Shown piece by piece: positions 9,501 through 46,748 of a stretch of DNA of 64,000 nt (position 1 is its first letter; every line of letters begins with the position of its first letter). The translations under genes and the position numbers were made by a program. The notes beneath the pieces are model-generated. The model saw only the letters and a list, made by a program, of their open reading frames with translations, ran no database searches and was not told where the DNA came from. The stretch lies in NCBI GenBank assembly GCA_041671565.1, contig JBAZBH010000004.1:9308-73307 (forward strand), in the 5' to 3' direction. Origin of the DNA: Patescibacteria group bacterium. GTDB lineage: Bacteria; Patescibacteriota; Patescibacteriia; JACRDY01.

Positions 9501-12500
9501 GGCGAGGTTCCCGGCGGGCCGCTGGTGTTGAATGTTAATTATAAGGTTAGCGTCAAGCGCCGGAACGACGGAGCCGAGAGCAATGCCGTGACCTTTTCCA
9601 CGGTTGATCGGGCGCTTAGCCCGGGCATTTGCCGCCTGAATCCGGACAACGGCCCGGAGGGCACGCCGGTTTACGCGTTGGGTGAAAATTTTGGCGCTTC
9701 CGATGAAGAGAAGAACGGATTTTTATTCTTTTCTTTAACTAAAGCTGATAATGTCGCCCGTGCCGGAGTGCCGCTCTGGGGCGATACCGCGGCTAAAGTT
9801 TTTGTGCCAGCGGAAGCCAATACCGGACCGGCTTATCTTTATAATCAAGGCTATTTTCCTTATACCGGCAAAAGCAATGAGGTTGGTTTCCGGGTCGGCG
9901 CCTGCACCCAAAATCTTTGCAATAATTATCCTGATGGCCTGGCCTGTAATAGCGGTAATCGCGGTCAACACGCGCCGGACGGCGCTCGCTGTTGGCTGTG
10001 TCTCGCTAACGGCTGGGAGTGGGATTACACGGCCGCGGATTGCAGCAGTCAGTTTAAAGATTGTTGCGATGACGGCGTTTGTTTAGATAAAAAATCCACT
10101 AACCCTCAGCCTTGCGCCACCCGCGGCAACAATTCTTCGCTTGCCTGGGCGTTTTCGACTGGTGAGATACCGGTTTATCCCCGCGTGGTGGAGGAGTGCA
10201 CTCAGTCGCTAAGTTGCAATCAAGCTAATCTGCCCAGCCCCAGCCCTTGGACGCCGGATTTTGACATTGATCGGGAATATGAGCTGGCTTGCAGTAACTC
10301 GGTAATTACCGCCCGTTTTACCGCGCCTATGAAACCGACTTCTTTTATTTATTTGACGGCGAGAAGTCCAGATGTCTATAAAGATGGCACTGGCGCCATT
10401 CAGCCAGCGTCAGCCACGGCCACGGTTGAAGTTAAAAAATGCGTAACCGCGGTGGTGGTTGATAATCATTTTATTAGTTGCAGTAACTGGGATAATCCGC
10501 TGCCGGGCGAACCGGAAATGCCGCCCAGCCCTGATAGTTTTCAATTTTATCCCGGCAGTAAAGCCGTCGGCACGGCGTTAGACCCTGATAGCTGGTATCA
10601 AGTGACACTTTTTGGCCGGCCGGCCGGGCAGACAAGCGGGGGACTGGTGGGGGTGAATGACTATCCGTTGCAGCAGAATTATGTTTGGCAATTTAAAACC
10701 CGTTCGGCTGCTGACGAGCCTTGCAAGGTGGGCTGTGTGACTGTGACGCCACCCAGTGTCACCGCCAGATTTTTAGGGCCTCTTCATCATTATAGCGCCG
10801 ATGGGATTGAGGGCGATCTTTGGTATCACCAGGCCTTTATTAGCGCCGAAGATAGCCCCTGTAATTTAATTAATGCCAGCGCTTATGGTTGGCTCTGGTA
10901 TGCGACTCAAAATGAGTTTATTAGGAAAGGTGCACGGGTAAACCATATCGCCTATAATCGGGTGAATGGCGCGCCGGATAAGCAGTTGGTTACCGCCCAG
11001 TTTGAGACCGCCGGTTTGCCAGTATTGTTGTGGGCCGAAGAAACATCTAGTCATCATAAAAATAAGGGCGATGTGTATGTCGATCTGGTTGACCCGCAGA
11101 TTATCGCCCGCTGGCCGGATTGTGGCACGGCTTGCGTTAACGCGCAGATTGGCGCGGCGTTTAACACCGAGATGGTCGCAAACGATTTTGATAGCGCCGA
11201 TACGGTTCAACTATTTTCCTGCGGCACTGATGCCACTTGTTCCGGCGTTATGGCCAGCGTGCCAATCAGCGATGTTTTTTATCAAGATCAAGACCAGCGC
11301 GCAACTTTACCGCCCGGCCATTATTTTCACGAATTAACCTTTAACGCCTCGGCGGCGCTCCTACCTAACATCTATTATCGGGTGGTGATCAAAAATACGG
11401 TTCAGAGCGTTGACGGCGTCTTTTTGACCATACCCAATGCCGCTGATCGTTATGACAGCAATCCGCAGGATGGCAATGTTGACGGTTATAGCTGGATTTT
11501 CAAAACTAAAAATGATTTTAACCTTTGCGCGATCGGTCGGGTGGCGGTGTCGCCCGCGGCGGCCAAACTGATTTGGATACCGGATTACCAGTTTTTTGGC
11601 GCGCAGGCTTATGGCTTTCCTGATGATTGCAACCAGTATGGCCAACGATTGGTTAATAGCTCTTACGCTTGGGATTGGGCGGCGACGGATAAAGCTAATG
11701 AACCACCATACGAAAATCCGGTGGCCAGAATTTCTCAGGTGCCGGCAGTCGGTTGCGGCAACGGCCTGATCAACCGCGGCGAGGACTGCGACGCTGGCCC
11801 GCGGAACGGCTTAGTTGGCAGTGGTTGCACGACCCAGTGTTTACATACCGGCAGTGTGGCTGGCGGCACTTGTCGTAATGGCGTGGTGGATGTTGGCGAG
11901 GAATGTGATTATGGTGAATTGGTAAATAATGATGATGACAGTACTAATTATAGCTTAAAATATTGTGATTCCGTCACTTGTTTGCGGTTGGGTAACGGCA
12001 ATAGCGGCACGGTTTGCGGCAACGGCCTCTTGGAGCCTGGCGAAGCGTGCGACACACTCTTTGAACCCAATGGCGATGATAGCGATGGTTGCACTGACCA
12101 CTGTACTCATTCTGGTAGTTTGCCGCTAGCCGCTGGCGGCACTTGCGGCGACGGCCGAGTGGGTCTGGGTGAGGAATGTGAAAGTTGTCTGGTGTGCCAA
12201 GGGGGGACGGCAGCTAATAACTGTTCGGCTAAAGAGCCAACCGCGGCGGCTTGCATCATGCCTTGTTCAGTGCGGACAGCCACTACACCTTACTGGGAAT
12301 GCACGGGGGCGACTGGTTGTTCGGCTAAAGGTGAAACCTCTTGCCGCGCTGACAATGCCTGTGTCTGGACCAGAAGAACTTTAGCCTGCGAGACACCGAC
12401 GGCATCCAGCGAGGGTTGTTACACTAATTGTTTATTACTAAATGGCGATTTGTATAAATATTCCGGCAGTAATTATTCAACTTCTATGTCGGTTTGCCAT

Positions 12501-15500
12501 AACGGTCTGGTGGAAATCGGCGAGGAGTGCGATTTGGGGCTGCCAATCAATATTGGCGGCGCGGATAATTATAGATTAAATCAGTGTAACTCTGCCAATT
12601 GTTTGAATGCCGGCGCTCCAATTTTAACAACTTATGCGCCGGCCGGCCCGTTTCAGATTGCCACTTCGGTTAATGAAGGCTTTTCTGAAATCACCGCGGC
12701 GGCCGGCGGGTTTTGCGCTAGCGACCACAGTAAAGCTTGCGTAGCCAATTTTGATTGTCCGGTTAATGACACCTGCGACATTAGCCTCCAAAAGAAGAAT
12801 GACCCGGTGTCCGAACTGGAAGTGGTCTGCCATCTGGCCGCTGAAGATTGCCCTTATTCCACGCCTAGCGACCTTTTTCCCAGAGGACTAGATAGCAATG
12901 GTTGTTGCCGTCTGCGGCCGCAAGTCGCGGTGATGGTGCCGGCCAATAACCCTGACTCGGATTGGGAGTGTGTCGGTCCGGGTACTTGTTCGAGTAACGG
13001 CCGTAGCGCTTGCCTAGCGGATACTTCATGTTCTTGGACTAGAAAAAATGCGGTTTGCCGCAATACCGTGATCACGGCTTCGTTTAACTATCCTGATGGC
13101 ACCGTTACATTAGAGGCCATGGATGCCAGTAGTTTTACCAAAGATAATGTGGTTTTGGAATATAATAACGGCTTGAATGTCTGTCCGGGAGCGCCGGTCA
13201 GTTTCTTACAAAATAAGTTCCCCTGGATTAAAGTGTTTGGCCAAGATGGCTTGTTATCTTGGGGTTATCACAAGTTAGGGGAGCTAGCCAAAAAGTTTTT
13301 GGGCCAAGACGCTTTAGCCGATGCCCGGCCGGAGGATATCTGGTGTCCGGTCAAGTCTTCAGTCACCGGCAGCGGGGATAAATTGGAGGTTAATCTCTTA
13401 GAAATGTTGCCGGCGAATAAGCAAATCCGGGTGGTAGTGAAAGAAGGTGTGAAAGACAGCCACGGCACGCCGCTCGGTAATTTCAATCACCGAATAGTTG
13501 ACGGGCTCGATATCTCTTGCAACGACCGAGATGGCAATGCTAATGGCTGTAATAGTTTTGTTTGGACCTTTAATACCGGCGCGGATATTTGTCTTTTAAA
13601 CCGAGTAGTGGTTGATCCGCTACAGGCTTCTTTGAACTACCATTTTGACGCCGCCACCCAGCTTGATGGCAGTTATTACGACCCGAAAGCCACCGCCAAG
13701 AGTTCTAACGGCCCGATCCAAATGGTGCCGGGGACTTATAGTTGGACTTGGAGTTGGTCTAAGGGCAGTTTGCCGGACGCCGTGGCGACGATGACTGATA
13801 ATCGATATTGTTCCGAAAATCCGTCGCAGGTTTGCACTAATAATACTGTTGCTTGCGCTAATGACAAAGGCGCTTGCACGGCTGACGCCGCGCCGAGCGT
13901 TTTAAAACATTGTTCCGGCGATCCAACGGTTGATTGCACCGCTGACGCCACGGTTTGTAAACCAAATTGCGTTTCTCACGACCAGCAAAAGGTTATGGCC
14001 CAGCAGCAAAACGGCGAAGGTGTGATCACCGCCACGGCTAAAGTTAATCAGGTTGACCCGTCGCTCGTGAGTGAAACTTTACTGGGCGCGGCTTATTCCG
14101 GCGAGTCGCAACTGGTGGTTTTCTTCTGCAATAATCCTTGGCCGCGGGTTTGTAAACATTATGATGCTAATTCTAACTCGTGGTTAACAAGCAGTCCTTT
14201 AACACCTTGTCAGATTGGTGATGATTTACTTGATGATGATTGCGCGGCGGGGGACAGTTGCAGTTTTGACGCTTGGGGACTGGAAGATTCGTCAGACACA
14301 GCGGTTCCGGCTTTCTTAAGCAATCCGGTTTATACCAATTTTAAAACTTATTATTGCCGCGATGCCGGCGCTGCTGACCGGACTAGCGACGATTTGCCCT
14401 CACTCGCTTTCCCGCCAACCGTGATTCCGCCCAATATACAGCCGCTCGGAGTGGGCGGCAGTAGCCAGCTTCTGCGGCACATGCTCCTGCCACGGGCGAT
14501 TGATTCCTCCTTCTGGGGGAGTGAGATTGGCGGTTCCAGCGACGCGGTGATTATCAGCGTGGAAAAAAATATTGAGCACCTTTCGCCGGCGCTTTGGTTC
14601 ACCGAGAAGTTCGGCGGCGCGCCCACGGCGGAAAAAGTTGACGGCTATGAGGCGGTCAATTCGGGCAACACGCATTATATCAACGCCGGTAATTTTGTGC
14701 CGGCCACCGGGGAAACTAATTATGGCCCCTGCGTCTTGCCTGCCGGTAACGGTGTTTGTCGGCTACAACCGTCGTTAGCTTGTCAAAATGACGGGCAGTG
14801 CCGTGTGCCTAGCGATAGTAGTTGGACTAGTAGAACCAGTATCCCTGATCGGAGTTGGCAGTCGGTCGCTTATGGTAATGGTAAATTTGTTGCCGTGGGT
14901 CAAACTGATATAGTGATAACTTCACCGGATGGCATTAACTGGACTAGTCAAACCGCCATTAATAATACCTGGCAATCCGTCACCTATGGCAACGGCATCT
15001 TTGTGGCAGTGAATGATTCTAACACCGGTGATCGGGTAATGACTTCGCCAGATGGCATTACTTGGACCAGCCGACCAGCTGATTATGGCCAATATACTCA
15101 ATGGCAATCCGTCACCTTTGGCAATGGTAAATTTGTGATGGTGAATAGCAATGGTACTGGCAATCAAGCGATGACTTCACCGGATGGCATTAATTGGACT
15201 AGTCAAACCACGCCGACCCCCAATAATAGTTGGTCTGCCGTCACCTACGGCAATGGTTTGTTTGTGGCCGTGGCTGATTCTGGCGCTGGCGTAATGACTT
15301 CACCGGATGGCATTACTTGGACCAGCCGCACCGCCGTTGATAGTGAATGGCGATCTGTCACCTATGGCAACGGCTTATTTGCAGCCGTGGCAATATCATC
15401 TGGCTCCCATCCTAGAGTAATGACCTCACCGGACGGCATTACTTGGACTAGCCGAACTGCCCCGGCTCAGCTTTGGTCATCCGTCACCTATGGCAATGGC

Positions 15501-18500
15501 TTGTTTGCGGCCGTGGCTTATTCTGGTACCGGCAATCAAGCCATGACTTCACCGGATGGCATTACTTGGACCAGCCAAACTCCCGCTCATAATTTTTGGT
15601 CCGCCGTCACCTATGGCAATGGCTTGTTTGTGGCGGTGGCTTATGGCGGCGGCACTGGCAATCGAGTGATGACTGCTTCGCTCTCAGCCGGTGGGGAAAC
15701 CGATTATGGGCCTTGTGATATTGCTACCGGCGGCACTTGTGAACTCAACTCGTCTTTAGCTTGCCAAAATGATGGCCAGTGCACGGTTCATAGCGGCGGC
15801 GGTGTCAACGATCGTTTATACACCAATATTTACATTTTGTCCCAGACCGAGAATTCTAATTCCAACACCAATAATATCTTCCAACAGTTGTTGAGGAATT
15901 TAACCTTTAACACCAATATCCCCAGCTCTAATACTTGTTTTAAACAAATCGGGGCCACCCCCCAAGAAATTTTGGACGCCGATGGCAATCCGGTGGTCTG
16001 TAGCCAAGATGCCGACTGTTATCGCTGTTCTCCGAACATTTCTGTCGCCAATCCTAACCCGGATAAGATTTGCGAGATTAGTGACGATTGCGCGGCGCCC
16101 GGAACCACGGCGTTGGAGTGTGATGCCGATCGTCCCGGTGTCACCATTACTTGCAACAGCCCCAAACTTAAAGTTACCCGCAATGTCAAACGGGCGGCGG
16201 ATATTCATGATACGCGCAGTCTCCTGGCGGCCTATGGCGAACAGCATAAAGTTGATAATATCAAAACTTACCCGAGTTTAGCCGCCGGCAGTTATCTTAA
16301 TGGCCAATCTTACAGCGCTTGGCCGTCCTGGCAGGCGACGCTGGGCAATGCGCTTGGCCGCACGCTGGCAATTGATCCGCTGAATGCTTTTTATGGTTGT
16401 AGCGCGCCTTATAATTCTACCACTTGCTGGGACCAGAAGACCCTGCGGTTTGCTTGTCCGGCGAAGTCTTACACCTATTATTACAGCGTGGCGCCGGATC
16501 TGAAGACTTATCGGCTGCTGGCTAATTTTGAGCAGTTTAGCACTACGCCGATAGCCGATCTTTGGGATGTGTTTAAAGATTATGAAAGCGTATTGCAGGA
16601 GGTTTGTTATAACTTTGAAGGGCGGAATTTTGACGATTACGACCAGGACGGTGTCAAAGACAGCGTGGATAATTGTCCGGGCGACAAGAATGGCTATACC
16701 TTGCCTTGCGACGGTTCTAATGACGGACTGTGCTGTCCGTACGACGATGTTCGCTTTTGTTGCCCTTATTATAATCCTGATATGCCAGATACTGATCCGG
16801 GTTTTGATGCCATGATAGCGGCGGTACGGGATAATTGCGGCCACACCAGGACCGGCCAAGCCGATACTGACGGTGATGGTATTGGCAATACTTGCGAAGA
16901 TTGTCCGAATGACGCCAACCATAATGACGCGGATAACGACGGCTTATGTGGGCAGGAGGATAATTGCTGGATGATTAGTAACCCAGAACAATTGGATAGT
17001 GATAATAGCTGTCCGGAGCCGCCATTTTATACCAGCGGCGCTGATCCCCAAACTTACGATCCGGCCTGCGGCGATGTTTGCGATTCTACCTGTCGCGGCC
17101 TGGGCGATGATGATTGCCAACAGGTTTGTGAGGGTAATAATAATGTTTGGTTAAATCAGGGCGGGCAGTCTAACTGTTGCGGCGACGATCCGGGTGAAGG
17201 CGCGGTGGGGACGATTGAAACCGGTAGCCAGTGCTTTGACGGCATTGACAACAACTGCGACGGCCGGATTGACGAAAGTGTTGACCCGGACAGCGACGGC
17301 GCCGGCTCCTGCGACCGGCCGGTGGCGGATTGTAATAACGATCCCGCCAGCCGTCCCGTTAGCGGTTCCGATATCTATCCTGGGGCAACCGAAGATTGTT
17401 ATAATAATATTGATGATAATTGCAATGGATTACTCGACGCCGCTGATCCGCAGTGCGCTCTTGTTACTTTTTCTCTTTCTGAAGCCATAACCCCGACTAC
17501 CGATTCTTATTATATTAAATTTACTAAAGATGATGATCCTAATTTTGTCGGTATGGTCGGGGCGCCGCAGGGCGTTTCCTATGGCCTACCCAATGAATTA
17601 GTTTGTTTTGGCACTAATACTTCCGGTGTCGTGCCAGCGCCATACCGAGCCTGCTTTGATAAATCCGGGCAAAGACCATTTTCAGATTTTCAAGGGTTTA
17701 TTTTGCCAGTCGGTAACTATACGGCCGAGATTTATCCAATTGAACCTAGTTCGGCGGTTGGCGATTATAGCCTGACGGCCAGCCAAAATGTTGCCGTTAC
17801 TGATATTTCTCATCCTAGCTGTGTTAATAATAACTACCTTAATTATGGCGCGGCTGACGGCGGACATTGCCTGCCGTGGAGCCATACCGAGTTTTGGGCC
17901 GACGCCTCTGATTGCGCCCTGACTGTCGGGGGGAACCATTATACTGATCCTAACTATTTACAAGCTTGGGGCGTGGATGGAAATGTTTTAACCACGCCAA
18001 CGAGAGAGCAACAACATTGTTTCAATCTCGCGCCGACTGATAAATATTACACTTTTCGGTTGGATAGCGACCATAGTGTTTTAAACGCGCCTTTACCCGA
18101 CTTTGAAAATACTTTTGTCGGCGCTGAATATGATTGGCAAGGTGTGGCTTATGGCGAGAACACATTTGTGGCGATTAGCGCTGACAAGGTAATGACTTCA
18201 GCTGACGGCGCCACTTGGATTGCCCGTAACGGTGGCGGCATGCAAGATTGGCATAGTGTGGCCTATGGCGGTGGCAAATTTGTGGCCGTAGCCAATAACG
18301 GCCACGCTGGCCTTAAAAGGGTGACGATTTCCGATGACGGCATTACTTGGCGGTATGGGATGTCTACCGGAGATCGAGAGGATGATTATCAGAGCATTGC
18401 TTATGGCGGTGGCAAATTTGTGGCCGTGGCTAGCGGCACTGGCAATCGAGTTATAACTTCGTCTGATGGCATCGCCTGGACTGCCCACGCTACTCCAAAC

Positions 18501-19082
18501 AACAATGATTGGCAAAGTGTGGCTTATGGCGTTGTCCAGAGCCGCGGCACATTCGTGGCCGTGGCTAATTCCGGCACCGGCCGGATTATGACTTCAACGG
18601 ATGGCGCCAGTTGGACGGCTTTAAATATCGGCGACGCTTATGATTGGCAGAGTGTGGCTTATGGCGAGGGCAAGTTTGTGGCGGCGGGCACTGATAGCGC
18701 GGGCAAATTAGTTGAAGCCTTTTCCGATGGCGCTAGTTGGACAGTCAATGTTTCGGCTAATACCGGCAAAGTGTATGCCTTGGCTTATGGCGGCGGCACA
18801 TTTGTGGCCGTGGTTGATAGCGCCGCGGGTAAGCAAGTAATAACTTCACCTGATGGCGCTAGTTGGACACCTTCGCCCAACCACACGCTGGATAATGATT
18901 GGCGGAGCATTGCTTATGGCGGCGGTAAGTTTGTGGCCGTGGCTAGTTCCGGCGTGGGCAACCGAGTGATGACTTCTTATAATGGCATTGATTGGGAACC
19001 CCAAGCCGCGGCGGTTTCGCCTAACCCAGTTTATTGGGATCCGGATGTTTTAATTAAATTTAGGTTTACCGTTACACATTAA
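6549..19082 (+). CDS. Giant (4177 aa) surface/adhesin-like protein with the same N-terminal pilin-like domain, followed by IPT/TIG domains, Cys-rich repeats, TSP3 Ca-binding repeats and two BNR/Asp-box beta-propellers
   Basis: N-term DIRVLIANIIRYALGLLGIVAVVICLYGGWLYMTSQG...LAFAIVSLVF. IPT/TIG-like ITEVDPGNGAPGNFITIYGKFFG (x3). CGNGxxExGEECD Cys-rich repeats. DQDGVKDSVDNCPGD / DTDGDGIGNTCEDCPND TSP3 repeats. About 7 + 8 repeats of WxSVxYGNGxFVAV...MTSPDGITWT, where SxDGxTW is the BNR/Asp-box. Confidence 0.8.
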   Translation: MFKKFSKIFLVLGLTAVLLLTAFGVRTALAADATDLGLSYVSNNTILPTGDIRVLIANIIRYALGLLGIVAVVICLYGGWLYMTSQGNEEQTTRAKAVLRDGLIGLAIILLAFAIVSLVFNFLVNATNPGESCAPGDPPRGCNWAPGPNCSGTQRCESNNRWGGCIPNYPIPPECELRDQFYIHHFSPPPYPPVTDPSKIGYWHAIKVRNATEEITFSMAVNPETLFETAPDSAASTAEPAFIVSKTFLSLSGVDYSDHLVMTASKTGNGIEILSNGQNVAPLADGINNFKWAVVKVTGGNWSGDNITVIFRTDQITNQGDLESWLGQHNDIDAGNYTVVNIFAVEIAAAGVGHDYFTEFPPAATYAAGSDPAGSIYLNYSAAEAAQSGSARIKVYNLGITYDPASADPARHLDAVGQQLKDMSEADLKALMLPDKQVAGDLVVVNGTIVAFNPSAPCPAGHETFFCFDQNTAYGVLVLPGVESQTGKRLLVDSAWPDFAYFLTGDKIDTEAPAVTLNMPFEGQGVCADQFNLSPAQSNLQSDARDDTEITRVAYSVYDASGPRGQLPIHYFIDGGTGKIMPNTEALWHIDYPSGGPLPDKYISYGSWDTYGFTFVTPPPPRVTVKAEAHDWNLSVEDSNTVVMRADHCCNGKKDLDETGVDCGGAWCGGCDGDACSLDTQSCQPDPTLCASSFCDPTTCVCRHLPIITEVDPGNGAPGNFITIYGKFFGSQIGQVVFLGAAGAGDDKVAKLPNEINPACGNTWQDEQIVVAVPTGAVDGPIKVVTAGGLEDTTESGPLHQRYPEEVVMTFDVNLTLRPGACLLRPASGKFSEQVDIVGTGFGLGTGTSDKVYFGTIVGPAVANSWTQTTVGAQVPNIAGGQTVAVKVQVGAEQSNGLRFNVTDEGDNNFPQINYLDPVDGNIGQYVTIFGKNFGGDTGTVLFTYNAGSEAQTAWGDFNFPAGCGQTWSDSQIIVKVPPSFLSIGEVPGGPLVLNVNYKVSVKRRNDGAESNAVTFSTVDRALSPGICRLNPDNGPEGTPVYALGENFGASDEEKNGFLFFSLTKADNVARAGVPLWGDTAAKVFVPAEANTGPAYLYNQGYFPYTGKSNEVGFRVGACTQNLCNNYPDGLACNSGNRGQHAPDGARCWLCLANGWEWDYTAADCSSQFKDCCDDGVCLDKKSTNPQPCATRGNNSSLAWAFSTGEIPVYPRVVEECTQSLSCNQANLPSPSPWTPDFDIDREYELACSNSVITARFTAPMKPTSFIYLTARSPDVYKDGTGAIQPASATATVEVKKCVTAVVVDNHFISCSNWDNPLPGEPEMPPSPDSFQFYPGSKAVGTALDPDSWYQVTLFGRPAGQTSGGLVGVNDYPLQQNYVWQFKTRSAADEPCKVGCVTVTPPSVTARFLGPLHHYSADGIEGDLWYHQAFISAEDSPCNLINASAYGWLWYATQNEFIRKGARVNHIAYNRVNGAPDKQLVTAQFETAGLPVLLWAEETSSHHKNKGDVYVDLVDPQIIARWPDCGTACVNAQIGAAFNTEMVANDFDSADTVQLFSCGTDATCSGVMASVPISDVFYQDQDQRATLPPGHYFHELTFNASAALLPNIYYRVVIKNTVQSVDGVFLTIPNAADRYDSNPQDGNVDGYSWIFKTKNDFNLCAIGRVAVSPAAAKLIWIPDYQFFGAQAYGFPDDCNQYGQRLVNSSYAWDWAATDKANEPPYENPVARISQVPAVGCGNGLINRGEDCDAGPRNGLVGSGCTTQCLHTGSVAGGTCRNGVVDVGEECDYGELVNNDDDSTNYSLKYCDSVTCLRLGNGNSGTVCGNGLLEPGEACDTLFEPNGDDSDGCTDHCTHSGSLPLAAGGTCGDGRVGLGEECESCLVCQGGTAANNCSAKEPTAAACIMPCSVRTATTPYWECTGATGCSAKGETSCRADNACVWTRRTLACETPTASSEGCYTNCLLLNGDLYKYSGSNYSTSMSVCHNGLVEIGEECDLGLPINIGGADNYRLNQCNSANCLNAGAPILTTYAPAGPFQIATSVNEGFSEITAAAGGFCASDHSKACVANFDCPVNDTCDISLQKKNDPVSELEVVCHLAAEDCPYSTPSDLFPRGLDSNGCCRLRPQVAVMVPANNPDSDWECVGPGTCSSNGRSACLADTSCSWTRKNAVCRNTVITASFNYPDGTVTLEAMDASSFTKDNVVLEYNNGLNVCPGAPVSFLQNKFPWIKVFGQDGLLSWGYHKLGELAKKFLGQDALADARPEDIWCPVKSSVTGSGDKLEVNLLEMLPANKQIRVVVKEGVKDSHGTPLGNFNHRIVDGLDISCNDRDGNANGCNSFVWTFNTGADICLLNRVVVDPLQASLNYHFDAATQLDGSYYDPKATAKSSNGPIQMVPGTYSWTWSWSKGSLPDAVATMTDNRYCSENPSQVCTNNTVACANDKGACTADAAPSVLKHCSGDPTVDCTADATVCKPNCVSHDQQKVMAQQQNGEGVITATAKVNQVDPSLVSETLLGAAYSGESQLVVFFCNNPWPRVCKHYDANSNSWLTSSPLTPCQIGDDLLDDDCAAGDSCSFDAWGLEDSSDTAVPAFLSNPVYTNFKTYYCRDAGAADRTSDDLPSLAFPPTVIPPNIQPLGVGGSSQLLRHMLLPRAIDSSFWGSEIGGSSDAVIISVEKNIEHLSPALWFTEKFGGAPTAEKVDGYEAVNSGNTHYINAGNFVPATGETNYGPCVLPAGNGVCRLQPSLACQNDGQCRVPSDSSWTSRTSIPDRSWQSVAYGNGKFVAVGQTDIVITSPDGINWTSQTAINNTWQSVTYGNGIFVAVNDSNTGDRVMTSPDGITWTSRPADYGQYTQWQSVTFGNGKFVMVNSNGTGNQAMTSPDGINWTSQTTPTPNNSWSAVTYGNGLFVAVADSGAGVMTSPDGITWTSRTAVDSEWRSVTYGNGLFAAVAISSGSHPRVMTSPDGITWTSRTAPAQLWSSVTYGNGLFAAVAYSGTGNQAMTSPDGITWTSQTPAHNFWSAVTYGNGLFVAVAYGGGTGNRVMTASLSAGGETDYGPCDIATGGTCELNSSLACQNDGQCTVHSGGGVNDRLYTNIYILSQTENSNSNTNNIFQQLLRNLTFNTNIPSSNTCFKQIGATPQEILDADGNPVVCSQDADCYRCSPNISVANPNPDKICEISDDCAAPGTTALECDADRPGVTITCNSPKLKVTRNVKRAADIHDTRSLLAAYGEQHKVDNIKTYPSLAAGSYLNGQSYSAWPSWQATLGNALGRTLAIDPLNAFYGCSAPYNSTTCWDQKTLRFACPAKSYTYYYSVAPDLKTYRLLANFEQFSTTPIADLWDVFKDYESVLQEVCYNFEGRNFDDYDQDGVKDSVDNCPGDKNGYTLPCDGSNDGLCCPYDDVRFCCPYYNPDMPDTDPGFDAMIAAVRDNCGHTRTGQADTDGDGIGNTCEDCPNDANHNDADNDGLCGQEDNCWMISNPEQLDSDNSCPEPPFYTSGADPQTYDPACGDVCDSTCRGLGDDDCQQVCEGNNNVWLNQGGQSNCCGDDPGEGAVGTIETGSQCFDGIDNNCDGRIDESVDPDSDGAGSCDRPVADCNNDPASRPVSGSDIYPGATEDCYNNIDDNCNGLLDAADPQCALVTFSLSEAITPTTDSYYIKFTKDDDPNFVGMVGAPQGVSYGLPNELVCFGTNTSGVVPAPYRACFDKSGQRPFSDFQGFILPVGNYTAEIYPIEPSSAVGDYSLTASQNVAVTDISHPSCVNNNYLNYGAADGGHCLPWSHTEFWADASDCALTVGGNHYTDPNYLQAWGVDGNVLTTPTREQQHCFNLAPTDKYYTFRLDSDHSVLNAPLPDFENTFVGAEYDWQGVAYGENTFVAISADKVMTSADGATWIARNGGGMQDWHSVAYGGGKFVAVANNGHAGLKRVTISDDGITWRYGMSTGDREDDYQSIAYGGGKFVAVASGTGNRVITSSDGIAWTAHATPNNNDWQSVAYGVVQSRGTFVAVANSGTGRIMTSTDGASWTALNIGDAYDWQSVAYGEGKFVAAGTDSAGKLVEAFSDGASWTVNVSANTGKVYALAYGGGTFVAVVDSAAGKQVITSPDGASWTPSPNHTLDNDWRSIAYGGGKFVAVASSGVGNRVMTSYNGIDWEPQAAAVSPNPVYWDPDVLIKFRFTVTH
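14850..15700 (+). repeat. Tandem ~135 nt coding repeats (7 BNR/Asp-box blades) inside the giant ORF
   Basis: Repeated ...tggcaatccgtcacctatggcaatggc...atgacttcaccggatggcattacttggacc... Confidence 0.65.
18128..19005 (+). repeat. Second tandem BNR/Asp-box blade array (about 8 blades) at the C-terminus of the giant ORF
   Basis: Repeated DWQSVAYGGGKFVAV...MTSxDGxxWT units. Confidence 0.6.
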
Positions 19083-29600: not shown

Positions 29601-30233
29601 CTATTTTTTTCCGTCCCATTCTGATAAAAATTCATTTAAAAAGTTTTTCATAAAGATTACCCTCCGTTTGGCTATATATTTTGCAGTCTTTGTATACATT
29701 TTTGAGTCAAGTAGTAATAGTTTCTCATAAAAATGATTAACCATCGTTTTACTCCCACCAATAAAAGTCGGGTTGGGCCTAATGTCGGGATCATGAATTG
29801 GCCTATTTTTGCTGACGCAGTATTGAACCGTTCGAATTACGCCAATAGCTCCAACTGCGTCCATGGCATCACAATCAGCAATTATTTTTGCTTCTATAGT
29901 TTTAGGTTCTCCAATTTCGTCAGACCAAGAATGGGTTAATATGCAATCGGCAATGGGGTCAAGTATTTTAGGTGTAAGTTTAAATTGTTTGAGAAATGTT
30001 TTTGCAACCGAAGCACAAGATTTGGTATGGGTAAATGCTGGACCGTGCTCGCCAATGTCATGCAATAAAGCGGCAAGTTGCACTATAAACACATTAGCCT
30101 TTTCCTTTTTAGCTATCTTTTCTGCTATTTTAAACACTCTTATAACATGCCAATAATCATGACCCGAATTATCACTAAGTAACTTTTTTTTAATAAAGCT
30201 TTTAGTTTTTTGAAGAATTTCTTTTTTATTCAT
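29601..30233 (-). CDS. HD-domain phosphohydrolase
   Basis: H...HD motif (YWHVIRV ... LLHDIGE). Confidence 0.7.
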   Translation of the reverse strand: MNKKEILQKTKSFIKKKLLSDNSGHDYWHVIRVFKIAEKIAKKEKANVFIVQLAALLHDIGEHGPAFTHTKSCASVAKTFLKQFKLTPKILDPIADCILTHSWSDEIGEPKTIEAKIIADCDAMDAVGAIGVIRTVQYCVSKNRPIHDPDIRPNPTFIGGSKTMVNHFYEKLLLLDSKMYTKTAKYIAKRRVIFMKNFLNEFLSEWDGKK

Positions 30234-36760: not shown

Positions 36761-37486
36761 ATGGAATACTTCACCCAAGCCATTGTCCTCAGTAAAACCG
36801 GCGTTCGGGAATACGACCGCCTTTTTTGTCTTTATACCAAGCATTTGGGTAAAACCACGGTCCTCGCTCGCGGCGCTCGGCGGCCGGGCAGCAAGATGGC
36901 CGGGCACCTAGAACCGTTTGGTTTATTAGCTGTTAAAATCGCCATCGGCCGCGGCCAGCCGCTCCTCGCCAATGTGGAAACCTTAAAGCGCTATCAAAAC
37001 ATTCTTAAAAATCTGGAGCTGATTAAATTGGCGCGCCGTTCAACGGCTTTAGTCGACCGGCTGGTTAAAGAGGGGAGTTGCGATTTGGGGATTTTACAGC
37101 TTCTGAACCAAATTCTGGAGCTTCTAAATTCGCCGGCCGCTAGCCTGCCGACCAAAGTTTTTCTAGTCCAAGTTTTTCAGCTTCAACTTCTAGGCCACCT
37201 CGGTTACCGGCCGGAGCTCGGGCAGTGTTTAGTCTGCCGGCAGAAGCTTCAGCCCGCAGGCAACTTCTTTGATCCGTTAAAAGGCGGCGTTGTCTGCCCG
37301 GCTTGCCAAGCGAAAGTTGTTGATTTACATCAGGCCAGAGTCATTAGCGCGCCGGAAATCAAACTTTTGCGGTTGGCTCTCGGCGAGAAGCTGTCATTTT
37401 TTGCCGGCAAGCGGGTGGCGGCGGAGTTAGCCACCAGTGTTGGCGCGATCATTGATTCTTTTGTCCGAGTGGTGAGTGAGAAGTAA
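36761..37486 (+). CDS. recO: DNA repair protein RecO
   Basis: OB-fold N-terminus (AIVLSKTGVREYDRLFCLYTKHLGK) and CLVC...CPAC zinc motif. Confidence 0.8.
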   Translation: MEYFTQAIVLSKTGVREYDRLFCLYTKHLGKTTVLARGARRPGSKMAGHLEPFGLLAVKIAIGRGQPLLANVETLKRYQNILKNLELIKLARRSTALVDRLVKEGSCDLGILQLLNQILELLNSPAASLPTKVFLVQVFQLQLLGHLGYRPELGQCLVCRQKLQPAGNFFDPLKGGVVCPACQAKVVDLHQARVISAPEIKLLRLALGEKLSFFAGKRVAAELATSVGAIIDSFVRVVSEK

Positions 37487-37522
37487 ACTTGACTTTTTAT
37501 GCCATTATGCTATACTAACATT

Positions 37523-37579
37523 ATGAAAACTTACCAAGCCGTGAATAATAATAACAATAATAACCAGCTACGGGGCTGA
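37523..37579 (+). CDS. Putative 18-codon Asn-rich leader peptide MKTYQAVNNNNNNNQLRG
   Basis: tatact -10 box at 37511-37516. ATG at 37523; 7 of 18 codons are Asn; TGA stop. A terminator/antiterminator follows. Confidence 0.35.
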   Translation: MKTYQAVNNNNNNNQLRG

Positions 37580-37604
37580 GAGGTTTTCTATTAATAAAAA
37601 CCTA

Positions 37605-37637
37605 AGGCCCCGTGAAAGCGGGGCTTCTTTGAATTTT
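37605..37637 (+). terminator. Intrinsic terminator / attenuator hairpin
   Basis: ggccccg-tgaaag-cggggc + ttctttgaatttt. The upstream cggggc (37571-37576, inside the last leader codons) can pair alternatively with gccccg. Confidence 0.5.
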
Positions 37638-37750
37638 ACGGACTTCTCAAGTTCGCCGCAGGCGAACGCCGAGAAGGCCAGAGTAAAATTCATCCGCCGA
37701 ATCCAGCTGCAGAACCCTGCGGCTGGAGAAGGCGGATAGTTGTTTGCTAG

Positions 37751-37806
37751 GCTCTGGGGTAGTTTAATGGTAAAACGCCTGGCTGCCTGCCCGCAATGCT
37801 CTGCGC
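37751..37806 (+). pseudogene. Degenerate 5'-half copy of tRNA-Asn
   Basis: gctctggggtagtttaatggtaaaacgcctggctg closely mirrors the genuine 5' half gctctgggatagttcagtggtagaacgcctggctg. Confidence 0.5.
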
Positions 37807-37878
37807 TCTGGGATAGTTCAGTGGTAGAACGCCTGGCTGTTAACCAGGATGTCGCAGGTTCGAATCCTGCTCCCAGAG
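37807..37878 (+). tRNA. tRNA-Asn (GTT)
   Basis: Cloverleaf: acceptor tctggga/tcccaga (U1-A72 as in E. coli tRNA-Asn); D stem gttc/gaac; anticodon loop ctGTTaa; T arm gcagg-ttcgaat-cctgc; CCA not encoded. Confidence 0.85.
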
Positions 37879-37880
37879 CA

Positions 37881-37920
37881 TAGCGCAGGCAGGCGGGCGT
37901 TCGATTCCTCCCCCCAGAGC
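37881..37920 (+). pseudogene. Degenerate 3'-half copy of tRNA-Asn
   Basis: gcgggcgttcgattcctccccccagagc mirrors the genuine gcaggttcgaatcctgctcccagagc; acceptor complementarity to the upstream 5' pseudo-half (gctctgggg/ccccagagc). Confidence 0.5.
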
Positions 37921-37967
37921 TTAATAGATAATACTTGGCCGCTTAATCTTTACTCTAAATTAAGATA

Positions 37968-40184
37968 ATGGTAATATATAGGTATATGCCATGGAAACTT
38001 CCGATCCCATCAAAAATAAAAAGGATTGAGACAAAGGATAAAAAAGAAGCGGCTAGTTTTAAAAAAGCCGGTTTTTCTCAAAAAAGAATGAAAAGCGGCA
38101 AGTTTGTTTTAGAAAGAAAACTCCCAAAATGGGAATACTTTCAAGAAAAAGTTCGTGTATTTTTAGATGTTCTTGGATTTCAGGATATTGAATGTGGACA
38201 ATCGGCTCGATTGGGGAGATATCAGATTGATGTTTTTGGTGGGTACGAAGGGACCTTTTTGGTTTTTGAATGCAAAAGTGTTAACGAACCAAAGCGAAAA
38301 ACGATTAGACAGATTATAAATGATTTTGCCGGAAAAAAAGCAGAAATAGAGCAAGCAATAAGAGAAAGATTTGGTTCTAAATACAATGAAGTTAAATTTA
38401 TTTTAGCTCTCGAAGAAATAGACATTTTAGAAGAAGATGAAAAAACTGCTCGTGAAAATGATATTTATATATGGGGTAGTAGTTATTTAAAAACTGGTGA
38501 AGATCTCTTTTCACTTATTGGTCCGTTGGCTTTACATTATGTTTTAAAAGAATTAGGTGTTAGTTCAAAACCCATTAAAGATGAGGAAGGAGGGGCTGAT
38601 TATAAAGTTCCAAGTTTTCGTATAACGGTGGGAGATCAACAATTATATAGTTTTTTTCTTCCTGCCGAAAAATTGTTAAATTTAGTGTATGTTTTTCGTC
38701 TTCAGCCGGGGAATGAAGATGCCTATCAAAGATTTATTTCAAAAAAACGTATTCTCGGAACAAAAGATGAAATTGGTATAACTGATTTTATAAACAACGG
38801 CGGATTTTTTAAAAACACCGTTGTTTGTAGTTTTGAAAGGCAAGTCCATTTTGAGGCAAAACCAACTGGTCTTTTATTGCAATCAACAAATATAGAATTT
38901 GGTATTTTGAGCATTCCAAAATTATATGGAACAGTTTGGGTTATTGATGGACAACATAGAATCTATGGTTATGCCGGTGCAAATCCTGAAACTAAAAAAT
39001 CACATATTGGGATAATGGCTTATCAAGATATTGAAAAAAAACGTCAAGCAAAAGATTTTATTGATATTAATCAAAAACAAAAATCAGTAGATCCTAATAC
39101 TCTTTGGGATTTACTTTCCCAAACAGATCCATATTCAATGCAGGGTGCGATAACAAAAATTGCTCGCGGATTGAATAAAAATGGAATTTTTAAAAATAAA
39201 ATTTTAATTCCAGGGAAAATGTTTCATGGTAAAAAATCATTATATCCATTAAAAATAGCCAATATTTGTAATAGTTTGTATGATCGCAGATTACTTGACT
39301 ATAAAGGCCGCGACAATTTATATAAAAGAACTTCAGATGTAGCGGATAGTAATTATTACCCGGATAGTGTTATAAACTACCCAGTAGATGTCCTTAATCA
39401 GTATTTTTCTTTACTTTGGGATATTGCAGACAAAACTCCAGAATGGAGAAAGGGGTTTATCATTCAAAATAATGGATTTAATATTTTTTTGCGCGTTCTC
39501 GCAGAAGTTTTGAAATTTCAAAAAGGCAATTGGGATAAACAGGTAGCAAAAGAATTAATGGATGAACCATTGAAATTATATTTTGAAGAGCAGTTTGAAA
39601 AAATAAAAGATATAAGGATCTCAACAAGTAATGAGGCGGGTAGAGCAAAGGTTGCTTTAGAAATTATAAAGCATATTAACCAGAAACAAGAGTCTTTTGC
39701 CCGTGAATTTATTGCGGAAACAGAAAAAAGAGAACGGTCGGCTTTTGAAAAATTAGAGCCTTATCAAACATTAAAAGAATTAGAAACAAGTTTAAGGGTT
39801 TTTATTGAGGAAAAATTAAAGCAATTAACACCAAATTGGTGGAAACAAAGAATCCCATCGGATGTTCAGGAAAAAGCTGAAGAAAACATGGCTAAAAACG
39901 AAAGTCCTTGGCCATGGGTACCAATAGAGGAAAAATCGCCGATCTTTTATATTAATTTTCCTGATTATGGGAAAATAATTCAAAGAAAAGATAACTGGAA
40001 TGATATTTTTTCAAAAATATTTAAAGATTCTAATATAATCTTTTCTTGGTTGAGGGAGTTGGAGGATATCCGCAATAAAATTGCCCATTTTCGTCCTATT
40101 TCCGTTGAAGAGTCTACCACCCTTAGACTTAATACAAGTAAAATTATAAAAACTATCAAACCAACAGAAGAGAAAGAGGAGTAG
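37968..40184 (+). CDS. Three-domain fusion: PD-(D/E)xK (Mrr_cat-like) nuclease + DGQHR (DndB-like ParB-fold) domain + C-terminal HEPN (Rx4H). Candidate defense protein on an AT-rich islet.
   Basis: N-term FLDVLGFQDIECGQSARLGRYQIDVFGGYEGTFLVFECKS (D..ExK); middle GTVWVIDGQHRIYGY; C-term WLRELEDIRNKIAHFRP (R-N-K-I-A-H). About 36% GC versus about 50% flanking. An alternative start at 37986 is possible. Confidence 0.75.
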   Translation: MVIYRYMPWKLPIPSKIKRIETKDKKEAASFKKAGFSQKRMKSGKFVLERKLPKWEYFQEKVRVFLDVLGFQDIECGQSARLGRYQIDVFGGYEGTFLVFECKSVNEPKRKTIRQIINDFAGKKAEIEQAIRERFGSKYNEVKFILALEEIDILEEDEKTARENDIYIWGSSYLKTGEDLFSLIGPLALHYVLKELGVSSKPIKDEEGGADYKVPSFRITVGDQQLYSFFLPAEKLLNLVYVFRLQPGNEDAYQRFISKKRILGTKDEIGITDFINNGGFFKNTVVCSFERQVHFEAKPTGLLLQSTNIEFGILSIPKLYGTVWVIDGQHRIYGYAGANPETKKSHIGIMAYQDIEKKRQAKDFIDINQKQKSVDPNTLWDLLSQTDPYSMQGAITKIARGLNKNGIFKNKILIPGKMFHGKKSLYPLKIANICNSLYDRRLLDYKGRDNLYKRTSDVADSNYYPDSVINYPVDVLNQYFSLLWDIADKTPEWRKGFIIQNNGFNIFLRVLAEVLKFQKGNWDKQVAKELMDEPLKLYFEEQFEKIKDIRISTSNEAGRAKVALEIIKHINQKQESFAREFIAETEKRERSAFEKLEPYQTLKELETSLRVFIEEKLKQLTPNWWKQRIPSDVQEKAEENMAKNESPWPWVPIEEKSPIFYINFPDYGKIIQRKDNWNDIFSKIFKDSNIIFSWLRELEDIRNKIAHFRPISVEESTTLRLNTSKIIKTIKPTEEKEE

Positions 40185-40305
40185 GGGAGTTTTGTGGATG
40201 AATATCTATAAGTTGATATTCTCTGGGCGAGTATTGTCCCGAGAATTTTTTGTTTATCCTTTACCCCACCCTTGGGGATAACTGGCTATTTACCCCTTAA
40301 CGGCG

Positions 40306-40334
40306 TTGACTTTTGGCTAGCCGGGCTCTATAAT
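40306..40334 (+). promoter_or_regulatory. Near-consensus sigma70 promoter (TTGACT-17-TATAAT)
   Basis: ttgact tttggctagccgggctc tataat. Confidence 0.6.
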
Positions 40335-43643: not shown

Positions 43644-44984
43644 ATGGAAGGGATACTCGTTATAATAGGGATAGCTATAATTTGGGGAATAATTTCTTGG
43701 TTTATTGAAATTTTTTCTAATTCAAAAAGATACTTAGAATTAAAGCCAAAACTAGATAATTTAGAAAAAGCAACGAAGGAGCAAGAATTAAAAATTTTAA
43801 ACAATGCGGCAAAATTAGAGGCAGAGTCACAGAAAAGATTAGATGAATTTTCGCAAAAAGTTAAGAAAACAAGCGACGAATTTGAGCTAAAAGAAAAATT
43901 ATGGAATGAACAGATGCAGAGGGAGATAGGTGAAATTCAAAAAATAGCTAAACAAAAATCAATGGGATTTCCTTGGTTAGCCGAAGCATATGCAGATTAT
44001 TTCACATTAGAAGATTATAAATTAGAAAAATATCTAAAAGATAAAAAACATCCAGCATATACTGCCGCAGAAAATGTAAGGATTATTAAAAATGAAAAGA
44101 GGGAATTATTGAAGGAAAATAAAATAGTCAGATATAAAATTAATTATTTTGAAAAATTATTTCCATGGCTCTCCGAATTAATTGCTGAAGACGAAGACGA
44201 ATATATTCCAGTTAGAATTGATAATATAGATGATGACAATAATGAAGATAGGGTTAAAGATTTTCTTACACCAGAAGAATACAAAAATCTTCCCTCTGTC
44301 GAAAGAAATCAAATAGCCCTAGATAGATATTTGAAAAATAGAAATAAGTCAAAATGGGCGATTGGCAGAGATTATGAAATGTATGTTGGGTATTTATATG
44401 AACAAGCCGGGTATTCTATCGAATACAAAGGAATTCTCGATGGTTTTGAAGATCTGGGTAGAGATATTATTGCTAAAAAGGGTGGTGAAGTTTGTATTAT
44501 CCAATGTAAACACTGGGCACAATATAAGGAGATACATGAAAAACATATTTTTCAACTCTTTGGAACAACGATGGAATATTGGATAAATAATTATCAAGCT
44601 GTGAGGAGCCAATTAAATTTATTCTCTCAAAATTTGAATAGTAATAATGCACCTAAAAGTTTTGAAGAATTTGCAAAATTTTTAAATGAAAATAAACTTC
44701 GGCCAATATTTTTTACATCAACAAAACTATCTAATAAAGCCAAGGAAATGGCAAATGCCTTGAGCGTTGAAATTAGAGAAAACGAATCACCTGGCGAATT
44801 TCCAAGAATCAAATGTAATATAAATAGCGACGAGTTTAGTTATCCAACAAAAATTTATCACCTGCCAATGGATCAGCAATATGATCGGACTATAATAGGT
44901 AATCGTTCAGGAGAGTTTTATGCTTTTACGGTTAAACAGGCAGAAGATGCTGGATTTAGGCGAGCTTTTAAGCACAGATTTTAG
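43644..44984 (+). CDS. Membrane-anchored coiled-coil protein with Mrr_cat-like (PD-(D/E)xK) restriction-endonuclease domain; AT-rich islet
   Basis: N-terminal TM; about 120 aa K/E-rich coiled coil; GRDYEMYVGYLYEQAGYSIEYKGILDGFEDLGRDIIAKKGGEVCIIQCKHW (Mrr_cat pattern). About 31% GC. Confidence 0.6.
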   Translation: MEGILVIIGIAIIWGIISWFIEIFSNSKRYLELKPKLDNLEKATKEQELKILNNAAKLEAESQKRLDEFSQKVKKTSDEFELKEKLWNEQMQREIGEIQKIAKQKSMGFPWLAEAYADYFTLEDYKLEKYLKDKKHPAYTAAENVRIIKNEKRELLKENKIVRYKINYFEKLFPWLSELIAEDEDEYIPVRIDNIDDDNNEDRVKDFLTPEEYKNLPSVERNQIALDRYLKNRNKSKWAIGRDYEMYVGYLYEQAGYSIEYKGILDGFEDLGRDIIAKKGGEVCIIQCKHWAQYKEIHEKHIFQLFGTTMEYWINNYQAVRSQLNLFSQNLNSNNAPKSFEEFAKFLNENKLRPIFFTSTKLSNKAKEMANALSVEIRENESPGEFPRIKCNINSDEFSYPTKIYHLPMDQQYDRTIIGNRSGEFYAFTVKQAEDAGFRRAFKHRF

Positions 44985-46115: not shown

Positions 46116-46748
46116 ATGGCTAATTGGGATAAAATTTATCGTGATTATAAAAAAGGAGGCGAGGCATGGGCAACTCTCAGTGAAGATATTCATCCGCTGT
46201 TTAAAAGCTTAATCAAGAAAACAAATTTTAAGTTTAAACAGGTTTTGGATATTGGCTGTGGTACCGGAAAATACGCCCTTTTCTTGACTGGCAAGGGATT
46301 TGCGGTTGATGGCATTGATTCTAGCGCTACCGCTATCCAAATGACTAAAGATTTACTTGGCAAGAAAGCCGGCCTAATAAAAAAGGCCAATATGTTTAAA
46401 TCGCGTATCGCTAAAGGCAAGTATGATTTGATAATTTCCGTGGCCACCATACATCACGGCGTTAAAAAAGATATTCAAAGTTTGATTGATAAAATATTTT
46501 TTTCTTTGGTGGCGGGTGGTAAGGCGTTTATTACTCTGCCAGACTTCGAAAGTTCAAAGAAATGGAATACCTTTAAAGATCATCAGGATTTGGGCGGCGG
46601 TACCTTCACTCCATTGTCCGGCCCGGAAAAAGGTTTGCCTCATAGTTTTTACACTAAGGTGGAAGTTCAAAAATTATTTACCCAATTTAGTAAGGTCAAA
46701 ATAAGCTTGGATAATATTGGTCGTTGGGTGGCTCAAGCGTCTAAGTAA
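46116..46748 (+). CDS. Class I SAM-dependent methyltransferase
   Basis: VLDIGCGTGKYALFL (motif I), GFAVDGIDSS (motif II). Confidence 0.75.
   Translation: MANWDKIYRDYKKGGEAWATLSEDIHPLFKSLIKKTNFKFKQVLDIGCGTGKYALFLTGKGFAVDGIDSSATAIQMTKDLLGKKAGLIKKANMFKSRIAKGKYDLIISVATIHHGVKKDIQSLIDKIFFSLVAGGKAFITLPDFESSKKWNTFKDHQDLGGGTFTPLSGPEKGLPHSFYTKVEVQKLFTQFSKVKISLDNIGRWVAQASK

Follow-up and report, generated by a model that had tools for sequence, protein, structure and literature searches.

We analysed a 64,000-nucleotide (nt) stretch of DNA from a Patescibacteria group bacterium (hereafter, the window), and in particular one open reading frame (ORF), whose predicted product joins a nuclease domain, a DGQHR module, and a HEPN domain in a single polypeptide. 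The true start of this ORF is probably not its first ATG but the ATG at 37986 (MPWKLP...), because the close homologues begin at the equivalent of Met7. This start gives a product of 732 amino acids (aa), which is also the length of P0001, a 100% identical database copy from a Patescibacteria metagenome-assembled genome that is named only "DGQHR domain-containing protein." The ORF and the parts of its product are the following.

37968..40184, plus strand: ORF of the three-module protein, 738 aa from the first ATG, 732 aa from the probable start at 37986; guanine-cytosine (GC) content 0.32.
38016..38120, plus strand: N-terminal beta/alpha mini-domain, aa 17-51, from the secondary structure of the AlphaFold2 model; present in the clade of the window protein.
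38127..38477, plus strand: PD-(D/E)xK nuclease domain, aa 54-170; D88 at 38229-38231, E101 at 38268-38270, K103 at 38274-38276.
38598..39197, plus strand: DGQHR/ParB-fold module, aa 211-410; YQR 253-255, DGQHR 327-331 (38946-38960), FIDIN 364-368.
39255..39749, plus strand: all-helical middle region, aa 430-594, from the AlphaFold2 model; distant members align here with the C-terminal part of DpdB.
39756..40157, plus strand: Swt1-type HEPN domain, aa 597-730; Rx4H motif with R702 at 40071-40073 and H707 at 40086-40088.

An original prediction, made from the letters of this DNA alone, had read three motifs in the translation, and all three are found where it placed them: the nuclease motif D88-x12-E101-x-K103, the DGQHR signature stretch (VWVIDGQHRIYGY, residues 323-335), and the HEPN motif R702-x4-H707. 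These are not chance matches. In an alignment of 90 homologues (21-87% identity), the nuclease residues D88, E101, and C102 never vary and K103 is found in 89; the YQR, the DGQHR, and N368 are also invariant, F364 is kept in at least 90% of the sequences, and R702 and H707 are each found in 80/90. The window protein scores above the cut-offs of the profiles for DGQHR (TIGR03187, 96.9 bits vs 58.85), DndB (PF14072, 38.3 bits vs 29.1), and HEPN_Swt1 (PF18731, 43.5 bits vs 27.5). The DGQHR module has a ParB/Srx-like fold. The C-terminal domain combines the profile match with the Rx4H motif and a helical fold, and thus belongs to the Swt1 clade of HEPN domains, with a predicted role as an RNase.

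The N-terminal domain had been labelled Mrr_cat-type, which has to be given up: neither Mrr_cat (PF04471) nor Mrr_cat_2 matched the window protein or seven homologues at E <= 1. The best Pfam match of the window protein is Hjc, at a sub-threshold score. Among the N-terminal segments of eight family members, Hjc is the best or near-best match in all and passes the cut-off in one, and the other matches are Card1_endonuc, NERD, and PDDEXK_3. The domain is a PD-(D/E)xK nuclease of the Hjc/FokI/Card1-like kind, with an alpha-beta-beta-beta-alpha-beta core that carries the triad. A search of the PDB with the family profile found no solved structure related by sequence. Matches by phmmer start at about aa 8 in close homologues and at about aa 56 in distant ones. 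We also scanned 10 family members with the PADLOC profiles, and the central region of the distant, methylase-linked members covers positions 6-320 of the 370 of the DpdB profile. Because these members match nearly the whole profile, the family architecture reads, at the level of sequence, as a restriction endonuclease (REase) domain followed by a complete DndB/DpdB-like module and a Swt1 HEPN domain. The gene is functional and under strong purifying selection: the ratio of nonsynonymous to synonymous substitution rates (dN/dS) is 0.04-0.06 against homologues of 72-87% identity, with a partly saturated dS.

The immediate surroundings of the ORF contain the following features.

37751..37785, plus strand: degenerate copy of the tRNA-Asn 5' half, 89% identity.
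37807..37879, plus strand: tRNA-Asn (GTT), 88 nt upstream of the ORF; apparent insertion landmark.
37886..37923, plus strand: degenerate copy of the tRNA-Asn 3' half, 74% identity; it pairs with the 5' half-copy and so encloses the tRNA in a long stem.
40218..40255, plus strand: terminator-like hairpin (40218-40246) and T-run; -12.5 kcal/mol, z -2.2.
40306..40334, plus strand: near-consensus promoter TTGACT-17-TATAAT for the downstream Ddl-like operon; it marks the return to host DNA.

The tRNA-Asn and its degenerate half-copies had been seen by the original prediction, as had the noncoding DNA after the gene. The latter is a spacer of 341 nt, close to the 340 bp given, and is not featureless, since it holds the terminator-like hairpin and the promoter. 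The genes that flank the ORF in the window (Adk, Map, RuvX, RecO, two Ddl-like genes, and a KamA-like radical S-adenosylmethionine [SAM] gene) are housekeeping genes. There are no Dnd, Ssp, or Dpd genes among them, in agreement with the predicted lack of dnd and ssp partners, and a TGT-like neighbour is likewise absent.

The gene is foreign to its host and was acquired horizontally. Its GC content is even lower than the 36% first estimated and contrasts with the value of about 0.50 in the neighbours, which was estimated correctly; from about 40250 on, GC is back at about 0.47-0.53. A second line of evidence comes from the tetranucleotide ACGT. It occurs at two sites in the whole window (38747 and 39041), both within the DGQHR gene, and is absent from the remaining 61.8 kb or so, where a second-order Markov model predicts about 67 occurrences and base composition about 246. 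GTAC, the 4-mer next in rarity, is found 29 times in the window. Because ACGT has normal frequencies in related loci of the candidate phyla radiation (CPR) and in the genomes with close homologues, its avoidance belongs to this host lineage, to which the DGQHR gene has not yet adjusted. The shortage of ACGT in the host DNA suggests a long-standing pressure from an ACGT-specific nuclease or another ACGT-directed process. The nuclease of the DGQHR protein itself can be ruled out as that agent: its own gene carries two ACGT sites and the genomes of its homologues are normal in this respect. The islet is evidence of a recent gene transfer into a tiny CPR genome, with a tRNA-Asn as the hotspot.

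We searched for the borders of the insertion in two ways. Around the islet, direct or terminal inverted repeats of the att type do not exceed chance, and there is no distal repeat, unlike in a related locus described below. We then read three related CPR loci, found through homologues of the downstream Ddl-like gene, in search of an empty site. They keep the Ddl-like operon, but it is preceded by ClpB and not by RecO and tRNA-Asn, and for this reason the borders could not be defined from them.

The contexts of the close homologues (56-87% identical) are mutually unrelated. Obg precedes the gene in one of them, and a large serine recombinase or a CfrBI restriction-modification pair does so in others; elsewhere the gene stands between an IS110 transposase and a SIR2-like gene, next to HNH, RadC, UvrD-PDDEXK, and PIN genes, or next to a C5 methylase and HicA. 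It is lower in GC than its flanks in 7 of the 8 closest loci, a tRNA gene adjoins it in 4 of 11 close-clade loci, and no homologue locus shares the RuvX/RecO neighbourhood of the window. One of these loci (L082) encodes a homologue of 74% identity that is also located 3' of a tRNA-Asn. Within positions 7638-10324 of this locus, the tRNA-Asn is followed by a degenerate copy of its 3' end and then by the gene, which stands between a left and a right inverted repeat of about 100 nt (the right one is 87% complementary over 70 nt, with 30 nt more); beyond the right repeat there is a distal copy of the tRNA 3' end (90%). The direct repeats of the tRNA-Asn 3' end are at 7685-7713, 7771-7799, and 10296-10324. 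This is a single-gene cassette, and no recombinase was found on the 10.8 kb examined. Members of the clade of the window protein thus spread alone, as one gene, and no methylase accompanies them consistently. Together, the composition, the ACGT sites, the unrelated contexts of the homologues, and the tRNA-Asn repeats of L082 bear out the proposal of a self-contained, horizontally acquired single-gene islet at a tRNA. The survey of homologous neighbourhoods that had been proposed as a check points the same way, with close homologues in unrelated, mobile or defence contexts and not in core synteny.

The architecture is not unique to this genome. It characterises a widespread family already present in public databases, where it has no name and its members carry only the label given to P0001. 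A word-indexed protein search retrieved 305 relatives. A phmmer search over 1.84 billion cluster representatives (50% identity) identified 243 clusters at E <= 1e-30 and 1119 at E <= 1e-10, and a scan of one genome per species confirmed at least 512 loci. The loci listed span CPR bacteria, DPANN and other archaea, Chloroflexota, Bacteroidota, Alphaproteobacteria, Actinomycetota, Listeria, and Enterococcus. A full-length homologue is encoded on plasmid pNL1 of Novosphingobium aromaticivorans (L081). In phage records there were DGQHR-domain matches and no full-length homologues, and PHROGs gave weak partial matches only. The original prediction knew of no described system with this domain order. 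In this it was partly right: PADLOC has no model covering the whole protein (the DpdB, DndB, and PDC-M34B profiles match in part only) and we found no experimental study of the three-module family in the literature. However, the database family is sizeable, and fusions of ParB-like domains with HEPN and REase domains were catalogued computationally in 2013. DndB combines ParB-like and HEPN domains, and the ParB-like domains of COG1479/DGQHR are often fused to HNH, PD-(D/E)xK, and HEPN nucleases (Makarova et al. 2013, PMC3632139).

What is new is the genomic context of the family. We clustered the neighbours of the gene in 80 genome loci and scanned the immediate neighbours with Pfam in 81 loci, pNL1 included. 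A DNA methyltransferase is the immediate neighbour in 40 of the 81 (31 D12-class adenine methyltransferases, 5 N6_N4, 3 MT-A70, and 1 C5). The adjacent methyltransferases are mostly on the same strand, and in many cases the two genes share 1-40 nt, with 4 and 8 as the most frequent lengths. Since in half of the loci the two genes abut, frequently with the stop codon of one overlapping the start codon of the other, the family is operonically coupled to DNA methyltransferases and looks restriction-modification-like. In a neighbour-joining tree the methylase-linked members, proteins of 755-815 aa, form a large clade along which the types of methylase swap. Cultured strains with methylase-linked relatives include Listeria portnoyi FSL L7-1582, Flavobacterium paronense, Pedobacter ureilyticus THG-T11, and Terrabacter sp. 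BE26. The window protein is in a separate clade, without an adjacent methylase. Next to its gene there is indeed no methyltransferase, there is none related to the partner methylases of the family anywhere in the 64 kb, and the ORFs near the gene have no DPPY-type motif. The claim of a new defence system therefore stands in part: the modules are conserved and the gene was acquired, but a family of which half is coupled to methyltransferases resembles restriction-modification more than a new class.

In about 10 loci, the place of the methylase is taken by a B12-binding/radical-SAM protein and a GHKL (HATPase_c_3) ATPase. Two annotated plasmids, one of Agrobacterium sp. S7/73 and pNL1, also encode a short DGQHR protein of 335-342 aa. 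On the Agrobacterium plasmid (L096, 5827-12531) all four genes, including the long nuclease gene, are on one strand, and on pNL1 the three partner genes are on the strand opposite to the nuclease gene. This variant could be an undescribed DNA modification-restriction system.

The explanation that we favour, with a probability of about 0.55, is that the window gene was acquired horizontally and by itself specifies a nucleotide-gated restriction or abortive nuclease for defence, made of a FokI/Hjc-like DNase, a DGQHR module, and a HEPN domain. By analogy with DndB-like and DpdB proteins, the DGQHR module would bind ATP or GTP together with DNA and act as a sensor and switch. Such a role is consistent with published work on its relatives: a DndB-like protein binds ATP and GTP (bioRxiv 10.1101/2025.10.10.680097) and DpdB is a ParB-like ATPase (PMC12839542). 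Self-association of the ParB fold, driven by the nucleotide, would pair two FokI-like domains, which cut both strands only as a dimer, and the same association would pair two HEPN domains, which likewise depend on dimerisation for their composite Rx4H RNase site. Invading DNA would thus be cut, with RNA cleavage as a second or fail-safe effector, a role proposed earlier for HEPN domains fused to restriction-modification nucleases (PMC3710099). In the methylase-linked clade, methylation presumably shields self DNA, as in classical restriction-modification. In the clade of the window protein, the enzyme would most likely be a type IV-like or abortive-infection nuclease, triggered by a feature of foreign DNA (e.g., modified bases) or by infection, because the spread of a lone gene fits poorly with a nuclease that needs a cognate methylase.

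Several points weigh against this explanation. Dimerisation and nucleotide gating are inferred from the biology of ParB, FokI, and HEPN proteins and may not carry over. The HEPN R or H is missing in about 11% of the family members; RNase activity therefore seems, from these sequences, to be dispensable in some of them. A methyltransferase is located within three genes in 3 of the 11 close-clade loci (D12 in L090, N6_N4 in L093, C5 in L095). Finally, the DNA examined covers 64 kb, so that the lack of a consistent methylase in the clade of the window protein remains compatible with an unlinked one.

The last two points lead to the alternative that survives best, although we consider it rather unlikely: a classical restriction subunit that cuts unmethylated sites, with the protecting methyltransferase encoded elsewhere and acting in trans. 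The operonic coupling of half of the family to D12, MT-A70, N6_N4, or C5 methyltransferases speaks for it, as do the three close-clade loci just mentioned and the restriction of our view to 64 kb of the genome. However, the window has neither a methyltransferase related to the partners of the family nor DPPY-type motifs in the nearby ORFs, and of the methylases at the three loci, that of L093 is already paired with its own CfrBI-family endonuclease, and the D12 methylase of L090 adjoins a 546-aa ORF without a Pfam match that may or may not be its nuclease partner. The single-gene movement seen in the window islet and in the L082 cassette is harder still to reconcile with it, because a nuclease that requires a methylase should be lethal when it arrives alone.

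The absence of a methylase beside the lone gene would be expected of an abortive-infection toxin, kept inactive until it senses a product of a phage or an altered nucleotide pool, in which mainly the HEPN RNase kills or arrests the cell and the DNase is accessory. The Swt1/Abi2-clade HEPN domain is conserved, the C-terminus matches PDC-M34B and the HEPN part of the DS-11 anti-phage protein, and the ParB-fold module would, by analogy, serve as the nucleotide sensor. Yet the nuclease triad and the DGQHR are conserved more strictly (89-90/90) than the HEPN dyad (80/90), and the methylase coupling across the family points to discrimination between DNAs and not to pure suicide. We therefore give this account little credence, somewhat less than the preceding one.

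A role outside defence, either as a DndB-like regulator or ATPase accessory to a DNA-modification pathway or as a housekeeping recombination or repair nuclease, can draw on the domain-level homology to DndB and DpdB and on the recombination genes RuvX and RecO nearby, but it is very improbable given scores far below the equivalog cut-offs (DndB TIGR04172, 40.7 bits vs 450; DpdB NF041060, 39.6 bits vs 300), the absence of Dnd, Dpd, and Ssp genes nearby, the foreign composition, the unrelated, mobile or defence contexts of the close homologues, and the absence of the RuvX/RecO neighbourhood from all of their loci.

Returning to the gated defence nuclease, a stronger version of it can be put forward tentatively, and we doubt it more than we believe it. 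The clade of the window protein might represent a new class of methylase-independent, single-polypeptide restriction factors, in which the DGQHR switch licenses both a DNase and a HEPN RNase, and the wider family might be a modular "reader-effector" placed on several writers of modification. These writers would be the four classes of methyltransferases and the module of short DGQHR, B12-radical-SAM, and GHKL proteins, which could install a new DNA modification.

The remaining observations concern the tRNA locus and other parts of the window. The half-copies around the genuine tRNA-Asn are predicted to pair into a long hairpin that contains it (37751-37923, minimum free energy -90.1 kcal/mol, z -5.6), with a 17-nt stem (37774-37790 with 37885-37901) plus an acceptor-like stem. 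The geometry of this nest differs from the usual attL/attR. Metagenome scans for the tRNA-Asn sequence, one exact and one degenerate, gave no matches, and with them no comparator for the nest or the insertion site. Upstream of the tRNA there is a promoter-like site (TTGACT-16-TATACT, 37489-37516) and, after it and shortly before the tRNA, a stretch of about 190 nt that forms three very stable hairpins (z -6.3 and -8.8), all within 37489-37750. Rfam at permissive thresholds found only the tRNA in 37480-37970. A second single-gene AT-rich islet (43644-44984, GC 0.31) encodes a 446-aa protein with an Mrr_cat domain at aa 242-311 (PF04471, E = 7e-8); its N-terminal half, read by eye, has a hydrophobic segment and, after it, a charged region resembling a coiled coil. 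Like the DGQHR gene, this gene was probably acquired, and its product is probably a type IV-like nuclease. A generic class I SAM methyltransferase at 46116-46748 (plus strand, GC 0.39) partially matches the PADLOC mad2 profile. An AT-rich HD-domain ORF (29601-30233, GC 0.35) is on the minus strand, where a greedy ORF map has only four ORFs of 80 aa or more, and 6549-19082 (plus strand) is an ORF of 4177 aa.

The family belongs with the ParB-fold-sensor nucleases of the restriction and type IV world; the 2013 catalogues had covered part of it, and the observation we add is the coupling to methyltransferases in half of the loci. More unusual are the ACGT-free host DNA, the tRNA enclosed by its half-copies, and the radical-SAM/GHKL partners. 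If the proposed mechanism is true, the principle of the ParB-fold nucleotide switch, so far seen in chromosome segregation, GmrSD, BrxU, SspE, DndB, and DpdB, would extend to one enzyme with simultaneous control over two kinds of nuclease. It would also mean that CPR bacteria, DPANN archaea, and many cultured phyla commonly carry a compact defence module made of one gene. The family is a natural experiment in which one restriction scaffold has been re-paired with different modification enzymes, and the radical-SAM/GHKL variant offers a concrete starting point in the search for what may be a new DNA modification.

Known systems resemble the window protein in one or another of its parts. Its nuclease domain shares only 8-14% identity with the type IIS cleavage domains of FokI and BspD6I; it differs from FokI in being N-terminal, in having no FokI-like recognition domain beside it, and in being coupled to a ParB-fold module. 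At the other end, the HEPN domain matches the PADLOC candidate PDC-M34B (aa 585-722, E = 3e-16), but the remainder of the protein is unlike it, as are the partner genes; PDC-M34 had no match in the ten flanking ORFs scanned, in which no search was aimed at subunit A. The CBS-HEPN anti-phage protein DS-11 (NF053863) is alike only over the last 140 aa or so, where its HEPN part matches (E = 1.6e-6). The pairing of the two C-terminal modules has a precedent in the Swt1-like HEPN clade, whose listed fusions include "ParB (Saro_3948), mostly active" (Anantharaman et al. 2013, PMC3710099). Saro_3948 may or may not be the pNL1 homologue. The pairing is the same and "mostly active" matches the 80/90 found here, but the 2013 catalogue papers have a one-line entry, without the N-terminal REase domain, the methylase coupling, or experiments.

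DndB and DpdB share the domain family and its motifs, defined as a QR pair, the DGQHR pentapeptide, and FxxxN (PMC4619093) and present here as YQR, DGQHR, and FxxxN. They work alongside enzymes that modify DNA, and they bind ATP or GTP or hydrolyse it. Unlike the window protein, they have about 350-380 aa and neither a REase domain nor an active Swt1 HEPN domain, and they act as a regulator or ATPase in multi-gene modification operons, which are absent at this locus. The link to phosphorothioation sensing in the original prediction is thus retained at the level of domain homology to DndB and lost at the level of the DndB-type and DpdB equivalogs.

Another parallel is with the type IV restriction enzymes GmrSD, BrxU, and SspE. 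Like the window protein, they combine a ParB-fold nucleotide-binding sensor and a DNase in one polypeptide, and they occur as solitary genes in defence islands or mobile elements without the need for a cognate methylase. The window protein is nevertheless not a member of this group, since it has no match to DUF262 or DUF1524 at E <= 1. Its ParB-fold module is of the DGQHR type (DndB/DpdB), where theirs is DUF262 with the related motif DGQQR (PMC4619093). Its PD-(D/E)xK nuclease is N-terminal and FokI/Hjc-like, where theirs is a C-terminal HNH (DUF1524). It has, in addition, the HEPN RNase domain, and it comes from a wider family of which half is linked to methylases.

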